Assembly: GCA_030390025.1 (NCBI GenBank)
Contig: JASTWF010000244.1
Coordinates: forward strand, 682,001 to 715,687
From: Squalus acanthias
Lineage: Eukaryota
Direction: 5' to 3'
Length of the DNA stretch: 33,687 nt
The notes below the pieces were generated by a model. The model was not told the origin of the DNA. It did no database searches and saw only the letters and a list, made by a program, of their open reading frames with translations. Positions 1,346-33,687 of the stretch are shown one piece after another; the stretch's first letter is position 1; each line of letters opens with the position of its first letter. The position numbers and the translations under genes were made by a program.

Positions 1346-1450
1346 CTGCTTCATTTTCTGATACTTCTAGCTCAGCAAATGTCTCTGTTGTATAGCCAGG
1401 TGATTCATTGTACATAAATGCTTTTGTTTCTTCATCACCTGCATTGTAGT
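1346..1450 (-). CDS. NCR3LG1: B7-H6/NCR3LG1-like gene, cytoplasmic-tail exon (D)YNAGDEETKAFMYNESPGYTTETFAELEVSENEA(G)
   Basis: 105-nt open exon with acceptor ctttctttctag| and donor GCAG|gtaagc. Phase 1-1 and in frame with the TM exon; non-repetitive sequence. Linkage to the gene is inferred. Confidence 0.65.
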
Positions 1451-1456
1451 CTAGAA

Positions 1457-1856
1457 AGAAAGAAAGAAAGACTTGCATTTATATAGCGGCTTTCATGACC
1501 ACTGGACGTCCCAAAGTGTTTTACAGCCAATGGAAGACTCTTCTGAAGTGTAGTCACAGTTGTAATGTAGGAAACACGGCAGCCAATTTGTGCACAGCAA
1601 GCTCTCACAAACAGCAATGTGTTATCTGTTTTAGTGATGTTGGTTGAGGGATAAATATTGGCCAGTACACCGGGGATAACTCCCCTGCTCTTCTTCGAAA
1701 TAGTGCCATGGGATCTTTTACATGCACCTGAGAGAGCAGACGGGGCCTCAGTTTAACATCTCATCCGAAAGACGACACCTGCGACAGTGCAGCACTCCCT
1801 CAGTACTGCACTGGAGTGTCAGCCTAGATTTCTGTGCTTAAATCTCTGGAGTGGGA
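1457..1856 (-). mobile_element. Deu-domain SINE (SacSINE1/AmnSINE1-like), 5'-truncated at the tRNA B box
   Basis: Minus strand has the Deu-core-like GGTGTCGTCTTTCGGATGAGATGTTAAACTGAGG, an L2-type 3' end (GCTATATAAATGCAAGT) and a (CTTT)n tail. It is flanked by the direct repeat CTAGAA (1451-1456 and 1857-1862). Confidence 0.8.
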
Positions 1857-2036
1857 CTAGAATAGAATATAAATGTCAAGAGTTCAAGAAATTAAACATT
1901 TCATAATTTAATAAAGAATTAACTGTTAACTTACATAATCTATATATTATTAAAATTGGTATGTCCTGGCATCTTTCTATTCAAAAAACCTTTGTCAACA
2001 GTACATATGAGGTTTGCAATGTTAATTGTGTCCACA

Positions 2037-10188: not shown

Positions 10189-10290
10189 CTTTTCGATGGT
10201 TTCTCCAAATGTAAATGCCAAAGCCAAGTGCTATACATATTAGCACCACAACACAGATTATAGCTGCAACATGTGAACGGGCCCCAGATC
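10189..10290 (-). CDS. NCR3LG1: B7-H6/NCR3LG1-like gene, transmembrane exon (G)SGARSHVAAIICVVVLICIALGFGIYIWRNHRK
   Basis: 102 nt with acceptor taatttacag| and donor AAAG|gtaagc, phase 1-1. About 21 hydrophobic residues followed by the basic stop-transfer RNHRK. Confidence 0.85.
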
Positions 10291-12140: not shown

Positions 12141-12741
12141 TACTGGCGGACCTTATCTTTTGATCAAAGACACTGAGAACATAAGGAGCAAAGGCTGCTG
12201 AGATGAGAATGTAACAGAACATGTGCAGGATATGATTGTATATTCAGCAATCTGTTTGATGACCTAAAGGTCAAAGTTAAACTCAGTAAGAATTGGGCAA
12301 CGTATGATTGTTTTTAACATGGTATAAAGAGGGAATCAAGCCTTCACTCATGTTAGGAACTTTAGCTACCTTCAAGGCGAGGTACCGTGAACGGCTGGGA
12401 TAGACAATCGCTCATGATTGTCAGGAAGTTCTTTACATGCAAGTTTCTAGACATAGGACTACATGTACTACTCTGTATGTAGTCTGTATGTAAGATGAAT
12501 GTTTTGAAACTATAATAAATGAAGTTAATTGTCAGACATATTACTCTCTCTAGCTTTTCGAATCGGTTATTAAAAGAATAAGGATTAATGCAACACCATC
12601 CAATTTTTCTTTCCCACTCCCTTTCCCTGTCACATATCCACCTTTCACATTCTCCTCCCCTTCCTCCACTCACTCAACCCTCCTTCTCTCCTCTCTTCTA
12701 TCCTCCCCTCACATTTATGTTCCTCTCATGATAGAACTCAC

Positions 12742-13062
12742 CTTGTACAGTGAGTACAGATTCTATTGTGAAACCATCAGGAAATGTTGGGTGCCTCACC
12801 ACACATCTGTACTTGACACCATCATCATTCTCTGTTGGTTGAATCCTCAGCTGACTGGAAATATTAAATGTTTTATCACTATTTTTGACATTTTTATTTG
12901 TATAGCTATCTAACGAAACATTTTCTGTTCTCCATCTTGATATCTTGACCCAGCTGATGTCTAGCGGCCAAGGATAAAATCCAGTAACGTCACATCTCAC
13001 AGAGCCCTCTGCACCACTCGGAATTGTAATGGATTGTGCGGATAAGCTAATGTTTGGTCGAG
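12742..13062 (-). CDS. NCR3LG1: B7-H6/NCR3LG1-like gene, Ig C1-set exon
   Basis: 321 nt with acceptor tttctacacag| and donor CAAG|gtgagt. Translation (A)RPNISL...VRCDVTGFYPWPLDISW...KNSDKTFNISSQL...YRCVVRH has C1-set motifs resembling the human B7-H6 C domain (GFYP, KNxDxTFN, YxCVVRH). Confidence 0.92.
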
Positions 13063-13478: not shown

Positions 13479-13659
13479 TACACCCAGGGAGAGGAGGGCA
13501 ACCTAGTGAGAGGAGTGAAACCCAATGAGAGGAGGTACACCCAGTGAGAGGAGGTACACCCAGTGAGAGGAGGTACACCCAGTGAGAGGAGGGCAACCTA
13601 GAGAGAGGAGGGAAACCCAATGAGAGGAGGTACACCCAGTGAGAGGAGAGAAACTAGTG
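13479..13659 (+). repeat. 19-bp minisatellite, ~9 units (consensus TACACCCAGTGAGAGGAGG)
   Basis: Directly visible tandem units, with variants GCAACCTAG- and GAAACCCAA-. Confidence 0.9.
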
Positions 13660-14183: not shown

Positions 14184-14519
14184 CTGATACCTGCATTGTT
14201 GAAGTCTTTTCTGCGTTTTCAGGGGTTATGAACACAATGCAAGTGTAACTTCCTTCATCTGCTAACTGTACATTCGGAAGATGAAGTGAAGCATCTCCCT
14301 TTAGTAAATCAATCTCAGAAATGTCTGCTCCAGGTCGCGTTTTCTTATGATCTCCTCCATGGAATGAATACACTTCTGTTCGTTCAAGGAACCATTGGAC
14401 TCCTACCTTTCCTAAGTCGATGTTGTCACCAACATAGCCAGTTACCTTGCATTTCAGGTGAACATTTTCATTTACTAATACTTTCAGTGGGCTTTGAAAT
14501 ATCTCCAGATCTATGGTAT
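14184..14519 (-). CDS. NCR3LG1: B7-H6/NCR3LG1-like gene, Ig V-set exon
   Basis: 336 nt with acceptor tttttttttaaag| and donor TCAG|gtaagg. Translation NVHLKC...VQWF...RPGA...KGDASLHLPNVQLADEGSYTCIVFITP matches the B7-H6 signature RPGA...GDASLxLPxxQLxxxGxYxCxVxxTP as I recall it. Confidence 0.92.
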
Positions 14520-15715: not shown

Positions 15716-15953
15716 TGTGGCGGATCGCCACCTAAACGGGCATAATCCACTTTCCGTCCGTGGACAAATATCGAGCACATTCCCTTTAAGGCACCTTACC
15801 TTTAAGGCAGGAGTGGGCGGGGCCTCAGGATTTTTCCAGAGAATTCTGGGAGCAAGCTGGTCAGCCATTTTTTGTGCCATGCTGTTGAATTAAAGTCTCT
15901 TGTTTTCCACATATGGATTCAGCCTCAATTCGTGTTTTGCGGCAGCCTCAACA
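15716..15953 (+). repeat. 5' LTR (238 bp, TG...CA)
   Basis: Direct repeat of 19826-20054, differing by ~3 substitutions and one ~8-nt indel. Confidence 0.95.
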
Positions 15954-15954
15954 T

Positions 15955-15966
15955 TGGTGACCCCGA
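15955..15966 (+). other. Primer-binding site complementary to the tRNA-Trp 3' end
   Basis: TGGTGACCCCGA lies 1 nt after the LTR; tRNA-Trp ends in ...TCGGGGTCACCA. Confidence 0.85.
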
Positions 15967-15993
15967 TGCTCAGAACATATTCCGAGCACTGCA

Positions 15994-18900
15994 ATGGCGG
16001 ACACGAACGCAGTTTCCGTGAAACTGCCGGAGTTTTGGGAAAACCAGCCCGAAGCCTGGTTTCTCCAAGCTGAATCTCGCTTCCAGCTGCGAAACATCAC
16101 CACAGATGGGACGAAGTACGACTATCTCGTCACATCACTCGGTAGCGCCGCAGTTTCGAAGGTTTGGACAACGCTGCAGAACCCACCAGAGGAAGGCAAG
16201 TATGCACATCTCAAGACAGCGCTCCTTAAAAAATTTACGGCCTCGGCATATCAGCGAAACTGCCACCTCCTCGACCTTCCAGGCCTCGGTGATGCCTCAC
16301 CGTCAGACCTCCTCTCCCACATGCTCTCCCTCATCGACGAGAGCCCACCCGGATCCCTCTTCCGCACGCTGTTCATCCGCCAGCTCCCTCTCAGCATCCG
16401 CCCAGCGATCGTGGCGTCCGGCCTCACGAACCTGGAAGCCCTGGCCGATGAGGCCGACAAGCTGCTGTCCGCTCACTCCAGCCGTGACGTCACTCCGGAC
16501 CTGGCAGCCAATGCCTGGGCGCGCCCCTCACCGGCCACCACGCGGCCACAAGGGCCTGCCACCAGGCCCACGGGGCCTTCATGCCCCACTAACCCAGGCC
16601 ACTGTTACTACCACGCAAGGTTCGGCGCCAGGGCACAACGGTGCACACCTCCCTGCTCTTTCAAGTCCGCCCCCGTACCAGCCCCTGCGATGGCCGTGGG
16701 CCACGCGGGCTCCCTGCTGTTCATCACGGATGACAAAACCGGCCGCCGGTTCCTGTGCGACACTGGGGCTCAGCACAGCATCATCCCGGCCTCCTCCCTC
16801 GACATCCAAAAGGGCGAACGAGGACCGGCGCTGGCTGCTGCTAACGGCTCGGAAATCTGGACGTATGGCACCCGGACAGTCACCCTCGACCTCGCTGGTC
16901 ACCGCTACCGATGGGAGTTCATCACTGCCAAGGTGCTCTCCCCTCTCATCGGCGCAGATTTCCTGTGTGCCCACTGCCTACTGGTAGACATCCCTCGTCA
17001 CCGCCTCGTGGACATGAACACCATGTCCCCCATTCTGGGCGCCATGGCCCCCCGTCAATCTGCCAACATGGCGTCACAGTGCCACGCCCGGGCCACGGAT
17101 GACTACTCGGCACTCCTGGCCGAATTCCCGGCCCTTACCAATCCGACCTTCTCAGCGGAGGCCGCCAAACACGGGGTGGAACACTTCATCCCCACCACAG
17201 GCCCCCCAGTGTACGCCCACGCCCGCAGGCTGGACCCGACCAAACTGGAGATCGCGCGGACCGAGTTTGCCACCATGGAACAGCTCGGCATCATCCGCCG
17301 CTCCAACAGTCCCTGGACCTCCCCACTCCACATCGCCCCCAAACCAGGCGGAGGTTGGCGCCCCTGCGGGGATTACCGCCGCCTCAACGATGCCACTACC
17401 CCTGATCGGTACCCCGTGCCGCACATTCAGGACTTCTCGGCTAGAGTGGCTGGCCGCTCAGTCTTTTCCAAGGTCAAGCCGGTGCGCGGTTACCACCAAG
17501 TCCCCGTCCACCCCGCGGACGTCCCCAAGACGGCCGTAATCACCCCCTTCGGCCTGTTCGAGTTCCTGCGGATGCCTTCGGCCTCAAAAACGCGGCCCAG
17601 GCATTCCAACGGCTCATGGACTCGGTCCTTCGGGACCTGAAGTTCCTGTTCGTCTACCTGGACGACATCCTGGTAGCCAGTTCCTCCAAGCAGGAACACC
17701 TCGAACACCTTCGCATCCTGTTCGGGCGCCTCAGCGACCACGGGTTCATCCTCAGCCCAGCCAAATGCCAGTTCGGCCTGGACAAGATCGACTTCCTCGG
17801 CCACCACATCACCCATGCTGGGGCCATTCCCCTGCCCACCAAGGTGCAGGCCGTCCAACAATTTCCCCGCCCCACCACCATCAAAGACCTCCAGGAGTTC
17901 CTCGGGATGGTGAATTTCTATAACCGCTTCATTCCCAAAGCGGCGTCCCTCATGAGGCCCCTGTATGAAGCCCTCTGGGGCAGGAGCGGCAAGATGGCAG
18001 TCGAATGGACGGCAGACGCGTCCGCCGCCTTCGACTCCACCAAGACCGCACTCGCCAACGCCACCCTGCTCGCCCACCCACGGCCCAATGCCAGGGTAGC
18101 GCTCACCACGGATGCCTCCGACCACGCGGTCGGCGCCGTGTATGAGCAGTGGGTCGACGGCGCCTGGCAACCACTTGCCTTCTTCAGCCGCCAACTACGC
18201 CCCCCGGAGGTCAAGTACAGCACCTTCGACCGCGAGCTCCTCGCGCTGTTCCTGGTGGTCCGCCATTTCCGGTTTTTGCTTGAGGGCCACCCCTTCACTG
18301 CGTTTGTCGACCACAAGCCCCTGACATTCGCAATGGCAAAGACAACCGACCCCTGGTCCGCCAGGCAGCAGCGCCAGCTCGCGGCAGTGTCCGAGTTCAC
18401 CATGGACATCCAACATGTCTCCGGCCGAGACAATGTGGTAGCCGACTGCCTCTCCCGCCCCGCCATCCACGCCGCACACCTGGCAGTCGACTACGCTCAA
18501 CTCGCAGCAGACCAGATCACCGACCCTGATCTGCTCTCCGCACCCACCAACCTACCAGGGCTACGCCTGGCCGACTTCGCCTGTGGCCCGACCGCAGTCA
18601 CGGTCAAGTGCGACATATCCCTATGTCAACCTCGGCCCGTCGTCCCAGCGTCCTGGCGCCGCCGGGTATTCGACATTCTCCACAACCTCTCCCACCCTGG
18701 CGCCCGCGCATCCATCAAATTGGTAGCCAACCGTTTCGTCTGGCGCAGCCTTCGCAAGGATGTGCGTACTTGGGCCAACTCCTGCCTAGCCTGCCAACGG
18801 GCCAAGGTACAGCAACACACGAAAGCACCCCTCGAGGAGTTTACCGTCCCCTCGCGGAGATTCGACCACATCCACGTGGATATCGTCGGGCCCCTGCCGC

Positions 18901-19682
18901 CGTCGCAAGGCCACACGCACTTGCTGACCATCGTTGACCGCACCACACGCTGGCCCGAGGCAATTCCACTGACCTCTACCACCACCGCCGACATCGCCAG
19001 AGCCTTCGTCAGCACCTGGGTCGCACGGTTCGGCGTCCCCTCCGACATGACGTCGGACAGAGGTCCGCAATTTACCTCTGAACTCTGGACCGCCGTCGCA
19101 CGCAATCTCGGGGTGACCATTCACCGCACCACAGCGTACCACCCCCAAGCCAACGGACTGTGTGAGCGGTTCCACAAATCCTTGAAGGCATCTCTTCGAG
19201 CCAGCCTCAGGACGGCGCCTGGACCGACCGACTTCCGTGGGTCCTCCTTGGCCTGCGCACCGCGGTTAAAGAAGACCTCCACGCATCGGCAGCAGAGCTC
19301 GTGTACGGTCAGCCGCTGCGCGTACCCAGCGAGTTCCTGCCCACCGCCATGAGACCCTGGTCAGCCGACCAGCAACGCCACGACTTCGCCTCACCGGCGC
19401 TGCAGTTCGCCCCGGTGCCCATTGCCCGACACGGCGAATCCACCTCACACGTCCCACTAAGCCTGCACCAGGCACGGTTTGTTTTTCGACCGCCACGACG
19501 CCCACCGCGGACCCTTTCAACCCCCGTACGACGGGCCCTACAATGTGCTACAGGCTGGGGACAAATTTTTCACCATGCAAGTAGGCGACAGGACCGAAAA
19601 AGTGTCGGTTGACCGACTCAAGCCAGCACACTCGGAGCCCGGTGAGCAGGTCCCTGTAGCTCGTCCACCTCCACGCGGCTGA
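15994..19682 (+). pseudogene. gag-pol polyprotein with ~3 single-base frameshifts (~17578, ~19210, ~19490)
   Basis: Gag VKLPEFW...CYYH-X9-C-X3-C; protease LCDTGA; RT YLDD; RNase H TTDAS...DRELLA...DHKPL; integrase H..H..C..C plus DIVG/SDRG/CERF; C-terminal GPY motif. Confidence 0.92.
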
Positions 19683-19825
19683 CCTGCCCTCAAGCCGGTT
19701 CACCCGGCTGCTCCACGCCTGGCCGTTCCACGTCCACCGGCGTCCTACAAGAGCCGCTCCGGCCGGCCCATCAGACCGCCGCACCGTCTCGTCCACACCT
19801 CCGAAGCGGATTCTGGGAGGAGCTG

Positions 19826-20054
19826 TGTGGCGGATCGCCACCTAAACGGGCATAATCCACTTTCCGTCCGTGGACAAATATCGAGCACCTTCCGTTTAAG
19901 GCACCTTACCTTTAAGGCAGGAGTGGGCGGGCTTTTTCCAGAGAATTCTGGGAGCAAGCTGGTCAGCCATTTTTTGTGCCATGCTGTTGAATTAAAGTCT
20001 CTTGTTTTCCACATATGGATTCAGCCTCAATTCGTGTTTCGCGGCAGCCTCAAC
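19826..20054 (+). repeat. 3' LTR (229 bp, lacks the terminal A)
   Basis: Direct repeat of the 5' LTR, preceded by the purine tract GGGAGGAG. Confidence 0.95.
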
Positions 20055-20274
20055 TTTCTTTCAACAACTCTCCCCTCTTGCACACACTTGCTGCTTCTTC
20101 CTCTCAGCATGCATCTGATGCCAAGCTGCCTTAGACATTATTCACACGAACCCACTCCCACTCTTCTTACAGGACAAGCTTGCACAAAACAGAAGGGAGA
20201 CTGCAGGAACCGGGAAAGGATAAGCTATGTTACAAACTCTCACTCCAATGGAGGATGCTGCCATCAATTTTATT

Positions 20275-24515: not shown

Positions 24516-24564
24516 CTGATGTTGAAATAAATGAAACAATACTGCAAAAAGTCAAAATGTTCAT
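24516..24564 (-). CDS. NCR3LG1: B7-H6/NCR3LG1-like gene, signal-peptide exon MNILTFCSIVSFISTS(D)
   Basis: ATG with A at -3, a hydrophobic 16-codon leader and phase-1 donor TCAG|gtaaag, in frame with the V exon. Confidence 0.75.
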
Positions 24565-30639: not shown

Positions 30640-30760
30640 CATTTTGAGTCCTTCTGCGCCCGCGCACCCGATCCCCTACTGCGCATGCGCGCTGTCGGCG
30701 AGGTCCGTCCGCGCATGCGCAGTATCCCACAGTTGCTGCGCGAGCCCAGGCATCAGCTCC
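30640..30760. promoter_or_regulatory. CpG-rich promoter-like patch with two NRF1 consensus sites
   Basis: TGCGCATGCGCG (30680-30691) and CGCGCATGCGCA (30710-30721) both match YGCGCAYGCGCR. Dense CpG in an AT-rich background that does not look repeat-derived. Confidence 0.65.
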
Positions 30761-33687
30761 GTGAGAGAGAGAGAGCGGGGAGAGAGAGAGAGAGAGGGAG
30801 GGGGGGAATGTGAAGAGAGAATCGGGGGAGAGAGAGAGAGAGGGGGGAGAGAGAGAGGGGGAGAAAGAATCGGGAGAGAGAGAGGGGGAATGGGGGAGAG
30901 AGAGGGGGAGAGAGAGAGTGGGGGAATCGGGGGAGAGAATCGGGGAGAGAGAGAATCGGGAGAGAGAGTGGAATTGGGGGAGAGAGACGGAATCGGGGAG
31001 AGAGAGTGGAATTGGGGGAGAGAGAGAATGGGGGGGAGAGAGTGGGAATCGGGGGAGAGAGAGAATGGGGGGGGAGAGAGTGGGAATCGGGGGAGAGAGA
31101 ATCGGGGAGAGAGGGGGGAATCGGAGAGAGAGTGAGAATCGGGGAGAGAGAGTGGGAATCGGGGGAGAGAGAATCGGGGGAGAGAGTGGGAATCAGGGGA
31201 GAGAGTGGGAATCGGGGGAGAGAGAGAATCGGGGAGCGAGAGGGGGAATCGGGAGAGAGAGTGGGAATTGGGGGAGAGAGAGAATCGGGGAGAGAGTGGG
31301 AATCGGGGAGAGAGGGAGAGAGAGTGGGAATCGGGGGGGGAGAGAGAATCGGGGAGAGAGAGGGAATCGGGGGAGAGAGAGAGAATGGGGAGAGAGGGGG
31401 AATCGGGGGAGAGAGAGAATGGGGAGAGAGAGGAAATCGGAGAGAGAGGGGGAATCAGGGGAGAGAGAGAGAATCGGGAGAGAGAGAATCGGGGGAGAGA
31501 GTGGGAATCGGGGAGAGAGTGGGAATGGGAGAGAGAGGGGGAATCGGGGGAGAGAGAGAATGGGGAGAGAGGGAATGGGGAGAGAGAGAATCGGGGAGAG
31601 AGAGTGGGAATCAGGTGAGAGAGAATCGGGGAGAGAGAGGAAATCGGGGAGAGAGAGGGGGAATCAGGGGAGAGAGAGAATCGGGGGAGAGTGGGAATCG
31701 GGGAGAGAGAGGGGGAATCAGGGGAGAGAGAGAATCGGGGAGAGAGAATCGGGGGAGAGAGAGGGGGAATCAGGGGAGAGAGAGAATCGGGAAGAGAGTG
31801 GGAATCGGGGGAGAGAGAATCGGGGAGAGAGGGGGAATCGGGAGAGAGAGTGAGAATCGGGGAGAGAGAGTGGGAATCGGGGGAGAGAGAATCGGGGGGA
31901 GAAAGTGGGAATCGGGGGAGAGTGGGAATCAGGGGAGAGAGTGGAATCGGGGAGAGAGAGAATCGGGAGCGAGAGGGGGAATTGGGGGAGAGAGAGAATC
32001 GGGGAGAGAGTGGGAATCGGGGAGAGAGGGAGAGAGAGTGGGAATCGGGGGGGAGAGAGAATCGGGGAGAGAGAGGGAATCGGGGGAGAGAGATAGAATG
32101 GGGAGAGAGAGAATGGGGAGAGAGAGTGGGAATCAGGGGAGAGAGAATCGGGGAGAGAGAGGAAATCGGGGAGAGAGAGGGGGAATCAGGGGAGAGAGAG
32201 AGAATCGGGGAGAGAGAGAATCGGGGGAGAGAGTGGGAATCGGGGAGAGAGTGGGAATGGGAGAGAGAGGGGGAATCGGGGGAGAGAGAGAATGGGGAGA
32301 GAGAGAATCGGGGAGAGAGAGTGGGAATCAGGTGAGAGAGAATCGGGGAGAGAGAGGAAATCGGGGAGAGAGAGGGGGAATCAGGGGAGAGAGAGAATCG
32401 GGGGAGTGGGGGAATCGGGGAGAGAGAGGGGGAATCAGGGGAGAGAGAGAATCGGGGAGAGAGTGGGAATCGGGGAGAGAGAGTGGGAATCGGGGAGAGA
32501 GAGGGGGAATCGGGAGAGAGAGAATCGGGAAGAGAGTGGGAATCGGGGGAGAGAGAATCGGGGAGAGAGGGGGAATCAGGGGGGAGAGTGGGAATCGGGG
32601 GAGAGAATCGGTGAGAGAAAGTCGGGGAGAGAGGGGGAATCGAGGGAGAGAGAGTGGGGGAATCGGGTGAGAGAGAGAATCGGGGAGAGAGGGGGAATCG
32701 GGGGAGAGAGAGAATCGGGGAGAGAGGGAGAGAGTGGGAATCGAGGGAGAGAGAGTGGGAATTGGGGGAGAGGGGGAATCGGGGGAGAGAGAGGGAATCG
32801 GGGGAGAGAGAGTGGGGGAAGAGAGAGAGGGAATCGGGGGAGAGAGTGGGGGAATCGGAGGAGAGAGAGGGAATCGGGGGAGAGAGTGGGGGAATCGGAG
32901 GAGAGAGGGGGAATCGGGGGAGAGAGAGTGGGGGAATCGGAGGAGAGAGGGGGAATCGGGGGAGAGAGTGGGGGAATCGGAGGAGAGAGAGGGGAAATTG
33001 GGGAGAGAGTGGGGTATCGGAGGAGAGAGAGGGGGAATCGGAGGAGAGAGAGTGGGAATGGGGGAGAGATAGTGGGAATCGGGGGAGAGAGAATTGGGAA
33101 GAGTGGGAATCGGGGGAGAGAGAGAATCAGGGAGAGAGGGGGAATCGGGGGAGAGAGAGAATCGGGGAGAGAAAGAGGGGGCATCGGGGGAGAGAGGGAA
33201 TCGGGGGAGAGGGAATCGGGGGAGAGAGAGTGGGGGAATCGGAGGAGAGAGAGGGAATCGGGGGAGAGGGAGTGGGGGAATCGGGGAGAGAGAGTGGGGG
33301 AATCGGGGGAGAGAGAGGGGGGGAATCGGGGGAGAGAGTGGGGGAATCGGAGGAGAGAGTGGGGGAGAGAGGGGGAATTGGGGGGAGAGTGGGGGAATCG
33401 GAGGAGAGGGGGGAAATTGGGGAGAGAGAGTGGGAATCGGAGGAGAGAGAGTGGGGGAATTGGAGGAGAGAGAGTGGGGGAATCGGGGGAGAGAGGGGGA
33501 ATCGGGGGAGAGAGAGTGGGGGAATCTGAGGAGAGAGTGGGGGAATCGGAGGAGAGAGGGGGAATCGGGGGAGAGAGTGGGGGAATCGGAGGAGAGAGGG
33601 GAAATTGGGGAGAGAGTGGGGTATCGGAGGAGAGAGAGGGGGAATCGGGGGAGAGAGGGGGAATCGGGGGAAAGAGGGGGAATCGGT
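30761..33687 (+). repeat. Purine-rich satellite, ~18-23 bp degenerate unit (GGGAATCGGGGGAGAGAGA), running off the window end
   Basis: Directly visible; almost entirely G/A on the + strand apart from the ATC/GTG cores. Confidence 0.95.

Follow-up and report, generated by a model that had tools for sequence, protein, structure and literature searches.

The window analysed here is the whole 33,687 nt stretch of the Squalus acanthias genome (G000:C1615:682001-715687), and positions given below refer to it unless a contig is named. It carries a gene that is read on the minus strand. The signal-peptide exon, with the start codon (24516..24564), is identical to two orthologues at 12 of 16 positions and ends in a GT donor. 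Further along the gene are an Ig V-set exon (14184..14519; Pfam V-set, E 6e-10), an Ig C1-set exon (12741..13062; Pfam C1-set, E 3e-12) and a transmembrane (TM) exon (10189..10290), each with AG and GT ends; the donor after 10189 faces the candidate acceptors discussed below. The first exon of the cytoplasmic tail (1346..1450) is 105 nt long, in phase 1-1, with an open frame and AG/GT ends.

The nearest proteins are B7-H6/NCR3LG1-like proteins of sharks (68-74% identity over the V domain), and one orthologue carries the name NCR3LG1-like. The basking-shark orthologue (P0005), which is 71-75% identical to the window gene over V and C1, has human B7-H6 as its best PDB match (E 5e-29; next family 2e-15). 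Judged through this orthologue and its PDB match, without a tree, the window gene is B7-H6/NCR3LG1-like and its closest characterised relative is B7-H6. The two share a signal peptide, a V-set plus C1-set ectodomain and a single TM, but the shark gene has a long, repetitive, acidic, multi-exon tail and belongs to a multicopy cluster.

Between the signal-peptide exon and the V exon, the intron contains an element of ~4.3 kb (15716-20057) bounded by ~240 nt direct repeats that are 98% identical; it is LTR-retrotransposon-like, the class being our own reading. A 19 nt minisatellite of ~9 copies (13482-13654) lies in the V–C1 intron. At the contig end is a purine-rich, degenerate tandem array of 2.9 kb (30763-33686), and the CpG-rich stretch with GCGCATGCGC motifs beside it (30640-30760) may be the promoter of the gene.

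The 35 residues of the 105 nt exon can be matched without gaps to the 35 post-TM residues of Mustelus asterias (11 identities) and, in two records, of Scyliorhinus torazame (8 identities), and for these three records none of 20000 shuffles scored as high. In a third Scyliorhinus record the match to the exon breaks off early (7 identities, p = 0.0002); the Chiloscyllium orthologue gives no alignment over the exon (p = 0.30). Six genomic copies of the exon were found, split evenly between C1615 and C10; they are not independent, as C10:45.45-45.55 Mb is a paralogue or haplotype that is 93-98% identical. The AG, the GT and the frame are intact in all six and the sole indel within the exon is of 12 nt, while 11 of the 12 variable codons alter the amino acid. 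By its alignments and intact boundaries, the 105 nt exon is judged to be real.

Among the joints listed for four runs over 1200-2036, where contigs of the SINE described below dominate, none shows splicing into 1450 or into 1856. Contigs of run X1, which is RNA by guess and comes from one study under another organism label, cover the 105 nt exon; one starts at 1346, another extends over 1383-1452, and 1200-1339 is uncovered. These contig ends would fit splicing at both ends of the exon but, coming from a single run with an uncovered part, do not count as evidence for it, and paralogue branching could also end a contig at 1452.

The first-pass annotation spoke of "the cytoplasmic exon". It is an exon of the cytoplasmic tail but not the only one, since 23 of 35 cassette matches in the next 50 kb downstream look intact, with AG, GT, a length of 3n and an open frame. 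The cassettes are of two types, 117 nt and 78/81 nt, and the 81 nt type resembles a 27-residue tail repeat of Chiloscyllium (E 0.003). At least 20 isoforms are annotated for the Chiloscyllium orthologue (with isoform names X12-X20). To judge from the cassettes, the 105 nt exon is the first of many tail exons, with at least 23 further intact-looking ones behind it. Use of the downstream AG was also said to keep a tail with three tyrosines, which is correct for the window copy; Tyr-2 is found in all six copies, but the window copy alone (1/6) has Tyr-14 and Tyr-20, and the aligned Mustelus and Scyliorhinus segments are free of tyrosine.

The SINE and its direct repeat

A tRNA-derived SINE (1457..1856, minus strand) abuts the 105 nt exon, and comparison with 24 unrelated copies indicates that the first ~55–60 nt of its head are missing. 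It agrees with the majority of these copies at 356 of 382 positions, and with 1978 candidates in the genome the 400 nt element counts as a high-copy repeat. A tRNA-like head with A and B boxes, recognised by their usual consensus, is present in full-length sister copies and missing from the window copy; an Rfam search over 1451-1856, where the tRNA head has been lost, gave no match. The element is provisionally labelled SacSINE1/Deu, a name that comes from the first-pass annotation and fits the published description (PMC5499810). Its head-to-tail order is that of the gene (sense), and the pyrimidine tract that now abuts the exon is its (CTTT)n tail (1457..1470), not an antisense oligo(dT).

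The SINE is flanked by two copies of TTCTAG on the gene strand, as had been claimed. The left copy (1857..1862) ends in the upstream AG (1858-1857), and the right copy (1451..1456) ends in the AG of the exon (1452-1451), which is kept in all six genomic copies (TAG in four, CAG in two). The plus strand has just two CTAGAA in 1300-2000, one at 1451 and one at 1857, and the suffix common to both sites is 6 nt long and no longer. The further claim, that an acceptor bearing the AG had been duplicated, stands in that TTCTAG with its AG lies on both sides, and is weakened by the finding that the repeat is partly microhomology. The left register corresponds to the B box of unrelated copies, where TTCAAG is found in 15 of 24 and an AG in 21 of 24 (one of the 24 rows being mis-anchored), and the left TTCTAG matches the SINE's own B-box TTCAAG at 5/6. 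On the right side, the CTTT tail alone already gives TTCT. By these comparisons the 6 bp repeat is also microhomology at both ends, and the two copies are less independent than they appear.

Control tails with a like 3′ end (CTAG) were fetched for 30 of 53 matches, using a pattern with one CTTT unit fewer than the tail of the window copy, and TTCTAG was at the 5′ junction in none of the 30. A few of them have junction repeats of 3–5 nt, most copies are without a clear duplication, and four of the 30 have an open frame as far as a donor-like site. Just 2–3 places in a full-length copy (430–464 nt) match TTCTAG at 5/6 or better, and the window copy is cut at one of them. By this cut, and by the absence of the hexamer from the 5′ junctions of all 30 control tails, the presence of TTCTAG at both SINE ends is judged to exceed chance expectation.

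In all six genomic copies of the exon the SINE is present, inserted at an identical base, so that none of these own-genome copies offers an empty site and the arrangement predates the local duplications. Older paralogues in the cluster stretches examined were not alignable over the site. Contigs of two DNA runs (X19 and X21; two organism labels, one study) bridge the exon into the SINE tail, and the filled site is therefore present under at least one other organism label. An X19 contig that crosses 1857 reaches only 28 letters into the SINE and was therefore left out as a bridge.

Two candidate acceptors for the 105 nt exon

Both AGs are at the positions given in the first-pass annotation (1858-1857 and 1452-1451), facing donor 10189, with the exon beginning at 1450. 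Before the upstream AG, about 400 nt from the exon as had been proposed, are a displaced pyrimidine tract and branch-like motifs (1863..1900) that would be the ancestral ones. They include the TTGAC noted earlier (A at 1876, position −20) and a TTAAT (A at 1892); both yTnAy motifs, at −20 and −36, fall within 64 nt that are free of AG. The downstream AG has no yTnAy motif within 50 nt and another AG at −23 (1473-1472). Its tract, the CTTT tail, is the only one beside the exon, in agreement with the view that the exon relies on it. Pyrimidines at −20 to −3 number 18/18 for the downstream AG, 13/18 for the upstream AG and 12–14/18 for the other acceptors of the gene. By such counts, which were the only measure of splice-site strength, the upstream AG is on a level with the gene's other acceptors and credible as a cryptic one. 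A third acceptor-like site is inside the SINE (1728..1745, AG at 1729-1728; 14/18 pyrimidines), and its use would shift the frame and lead to a stop.

Use of the upstream AG reads VPLQRFKHRNLG-stop, in agreement with the translation proposed earlier; the TGA is codon 13 (1819..1821), and peptide and stop are identical in all six copies. The exon would then be 511 nt long, between introns of 8 kb and 5 kb, and exon definition works against an exon of this size between long introns. Its stop is 473 nt ahead of the next junction and precedes the at least 23 further cassette exons. A stop well before a junction predicts nonsense-mediated decay under the vertebrate exon-junction rule, and the upstream product is therefore predicted to be decayed. 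Neither AATAAA nor ATTAAA is present on the gene strand in 1900-1. The 3′ end of the SINE does contain TATAAA (1478..1483) with a U-rich run after it, and TATAAA is a weak variant of the poly(A) signal.

The branch-like A at 1876 is a G in four of the six copies, and in one copy the upstream site is divided at about −21 by a 4.2 kb insertion. Constraint on the upstream acceptor was considered and rejected. Among the six copies only one column of 64 varies from −24 to +40 (with three choices of background, P = 0.11, 0.03 and 0.006), which is suggestive against chosen backgrounds but ordinary against sliding windows, 334 of 2753 windows of 64 nt being equally invariant (four copies).

The same SINE family is found at a second acceptor of this genome, that of the last coding exon of ING1 (G000:C7:97739748), which lies directly at the end of a full-length sense copy. 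The ING1 site (L149:1704-2545, ~97739748-97740590, minus strand) has ~900 nt of SINE upstream of the exon, with an internal ~33 nt tandem expansion and the SINE tail as pyrimidine tract; no repeated AG was found at the 5′ end of this SINE. If ING1 is spliced normally, as is likely, its tract and branch point come from the SINE, so that a SINE 3′ end of this kind can likely carry an acceptor. Genome-wide, 9,566 SINE tail ends are followed by five pyrimidines and an AG (control 1), and a few at real acceptors are therefore expected without targeting.

Readings of the insertion and known parallels

The reading we favour, and consider probable, is that the SINE was inserted by retrotransposition with a short duplication and that its tail rescued the acceptor; the downstream AG would work, and the upstream AG would be silent or lead only to decay. 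The target hexamer would have resembled both ends of the SINE, TTCT being like the tail (priming) and TTCTAG like the B-box TTCAAG (5′ joining), and the second likeness would explain why the SINE was cut at that base. In the simplest history, priming on the TTCT of the acceptor would be followed by a 6 bp stagger and by 5′ joining at the B box. The old tract and branch site would thereby have been shifted 406 nt upstream, and with the SINE tail the right-hand AG would have gained a tract of purer pyrimidine, its branch A presumably being a weak one somewhere in the SINE 3′ end. Exon definition would prefer the 105 nt exon to the 511 nt one, and upstream use would meet the premature stop. Whether or not a true duplication took place, joining the flanks restores nearly the same acceptor, and the insertion was apparently harmless and self-repairing. 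Counting against this reading are the lack of an empty site and, among the joints listed, of a spliced junction at either AG, the unaligned Chiloscyllium orthologue and the poorly conserved exon residues among copies, an upstream site that is as good by sequence, the lack of yTnAy and the AG at −23 of the downstream site, and a sense Alu in an NF1 acceptor that caused skipping (PMC3219598), given that skipping of a 3n exon would keep the frame here.

The 6 bp repeat fits, in length and context, a short duplication of the L2 type with microhomology at both ends. L2-type elements (ZfL2-1) make duplications of ~5 bp, join their 5′ ends by annealing and leave mostly truncated inserts (PMC4245944). 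The shark insertion would be alike in these respects, but ZfL2-1 is a zebrafish LINE measured in cultured cells. SacSINE1 is described as having an L2-like tail and copies in the 3′ UTRs of elephant-shark mRNAs (PMC5499810). By description, the shark SINE resembles it in its length of 430–470 nt, in its abundance in a shark genome and, judging by full-length sister copies, in a tRNA-like head that bears A and B boxes. The accessible text on Zenon elements gives them poly(A) tails and does not mention SacSINE (PMC13343379).

It is also conceivable that there was no true duplication, the left hexamer being the B-box TTCAAG changed once later and the upstream AG SINE-derived. An AG that 21 of 24 unrelated copies have in this register and the missing duplication in most control copies speak for it, but the SINE match stops exactly at the edge of the hexamer, at one of the few such places in 430–464 nt, and the differing base equals the right-hand copy in all six copies; we regard this reading as very unlikely. 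Real use of the upstream AG, or of the SINE-internal site at 1728, might instead tune the output of the gene through nonsense-mediated decay. The upstream site has a good-looking tract and branch motifs, all upstream products contain a stop, and the merle allele of dogs is a case in which SINE-shifted acceptors can compete (PMC6091007); against this stand the 511 nt exon between long introns, the rival tract of 18/18 and the lack of any sign of constraint, and we regard such tuning as unlikely. Skipping is somewhat less probable again. A weakened acceptor would then leave the 105 nt exon as an optional tail cassette, often skipped in frame, for which the missing yTnAy at the downstream AG, the phase 1-1 exon of 3n length, residues that drift freely among copies, the many annotated isoforms of Chiloscyllium and the NF1 precedent (PMC3219598) can be cited. 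On the other side, AG, GT and frame are whole in all six copies with an indel of 12 nt, and ING1 suggests that the end of this SINE family can serve a needed exon.

The first-pass annotation had proposed a tail switch, with both AGs in use. The upstream AG would then give a stable, short-tailed protein if polyadenylation in the 3′ end of the SINE allowed an escape from decay. The resemblance of the upstream site to a normal acceptor, the invariance of the SINE peptide and stop, and the TATAAA (1483-1478) with its U-rich run are in its favour, and SacSINE1 copies in 3′ UTRs (PMC5499810) add a precedent. The other observations speak against it: the stop is early, a canonical poly(A) hexamer is missing, the upstream invariance is within the local range, the branch A is lost in four of six copies, one copy has its site split, and the tyrosines are not conserved. 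A search for annotated isoforms of close relatives gave three candidates, none of them at E <= 10, and no database protein with such a tail came up; this search was a weak one, the query being the downstream exon and not the SINE peptide. We hold the tail switch to be very unlikely. The same very low probability is given to a bolder form of it, in which the insertion would have built a whole alternative last exon from the old acceptor, the SINE stop and a weak poly(A) signal with its U-rich tail, yielding a decay-proof B7-H6-like protein without the tail of more than 20 exons, and in which the pyrimidine tail of the SINE family would allow it, across shark genomes, to land in acceptors, repair them and leave spare ones.

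The closest known arrangement is that of canine merle, a SINEC_Cf insertion at the PMEL intron 10/exon 11 boundary (PMC7349775; PMC6091007). Merle is likewise a tRNA-derived SINE at an intron–exon boundary, with the original acceptor held in the target-site duplication, the SINE tail as pyrimidine tract and more than one candidate AG. Merle differs in its antisense orientation, with oligo(dT) at the upstream end, and in its 15 bp duplication; the AG that competes lies within the SINE itself, its use is demonstrated and adds 52 residues in frame, and there is a phenotype. The shark SINE, in contrast, is in sense orientation, its CTTT tail abuts the exon, its duplication is of 6 bp and upstream use leads to a stop; it is present in all six genomic copies, and competition between its AGs is hypothetical. 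A sense AluY in NF1 intron 14 (c.1642-1_1642) is a disease allele with an 11 bp duplication and a skipped exon (PMC3219598). Like the shark SINE it has landed in sense on the AG of an acceptor and is flanked by a short duplication, but it places the Alu poly(A) tail beside the exon, whereas the shark tail is pyrimidine-rich and likely rescues the site. No paper on the shark gene, on rescue by a sense CTTT tail or with wording for an acceptor duplicated by a SINE was found in the open-access literature searched.

Most known cases of a SINE inserted in a splice acceptor are alleles that do damage, such as NF1 and merle. A sense SINE with a pyrimidine-repeat tail can likely replace a disrupted tract and persist, and the window locus and ING1 are two such SINE-tail acceptor sites in one genome. 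We predict that, among shark SINEs touching real acceptors, sense copies will be over-represented and splicing normal. The effect on the window gene alone is probably nil, and the tail switch would be of consequence only if it were seen in RNA.

Structure of the cluster and the tail array

The C10 locus (G000:C10:45450001-45550000) was compared with C1615:430001-715687. Its 5′ part matches the window gene and its 3′ part matches a C1615 region 200 kb away, and a partial duplicate of the TM exon is found at 45486624 on C10. By this alignment, the two loci differ through large structural variation between haplotypes or paralogues. The 4.2 kb element of one C10 copy (G000:C10:45522060-45526260; L005:1-1064), ~21 nt before the upstream AG, has G/C-run ends and an apparent 3 bp duplication.

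The tail array (G000:C1615:633000-678500; L007-L011) consists of acidic, symmetric cassette exons of 117 nt and 78/81 nt in tandem units of ~1.9 kb, some of which are 98-99% identical. Paralogues and the Mustelus and Scyliorhinus orthologues have repeated domains of ~140 residues after the TM, on the predicted cytoplasmic side (L020:8121-8552; G000:C10:45500692, 45509572 and 45512355; G000:C1615:470168 and 459048), and the window gene copy is without these domains of its relatives. The domains had neither a Pfam nor a PDB match. Their look-alikes in the Atlas are mostly Ig C1/C2-set clusters at 0.81-0.84, which serves as a lead only, and the repeats may represent Ig-like domains that a B7-H6-like protein carries inside the cell.
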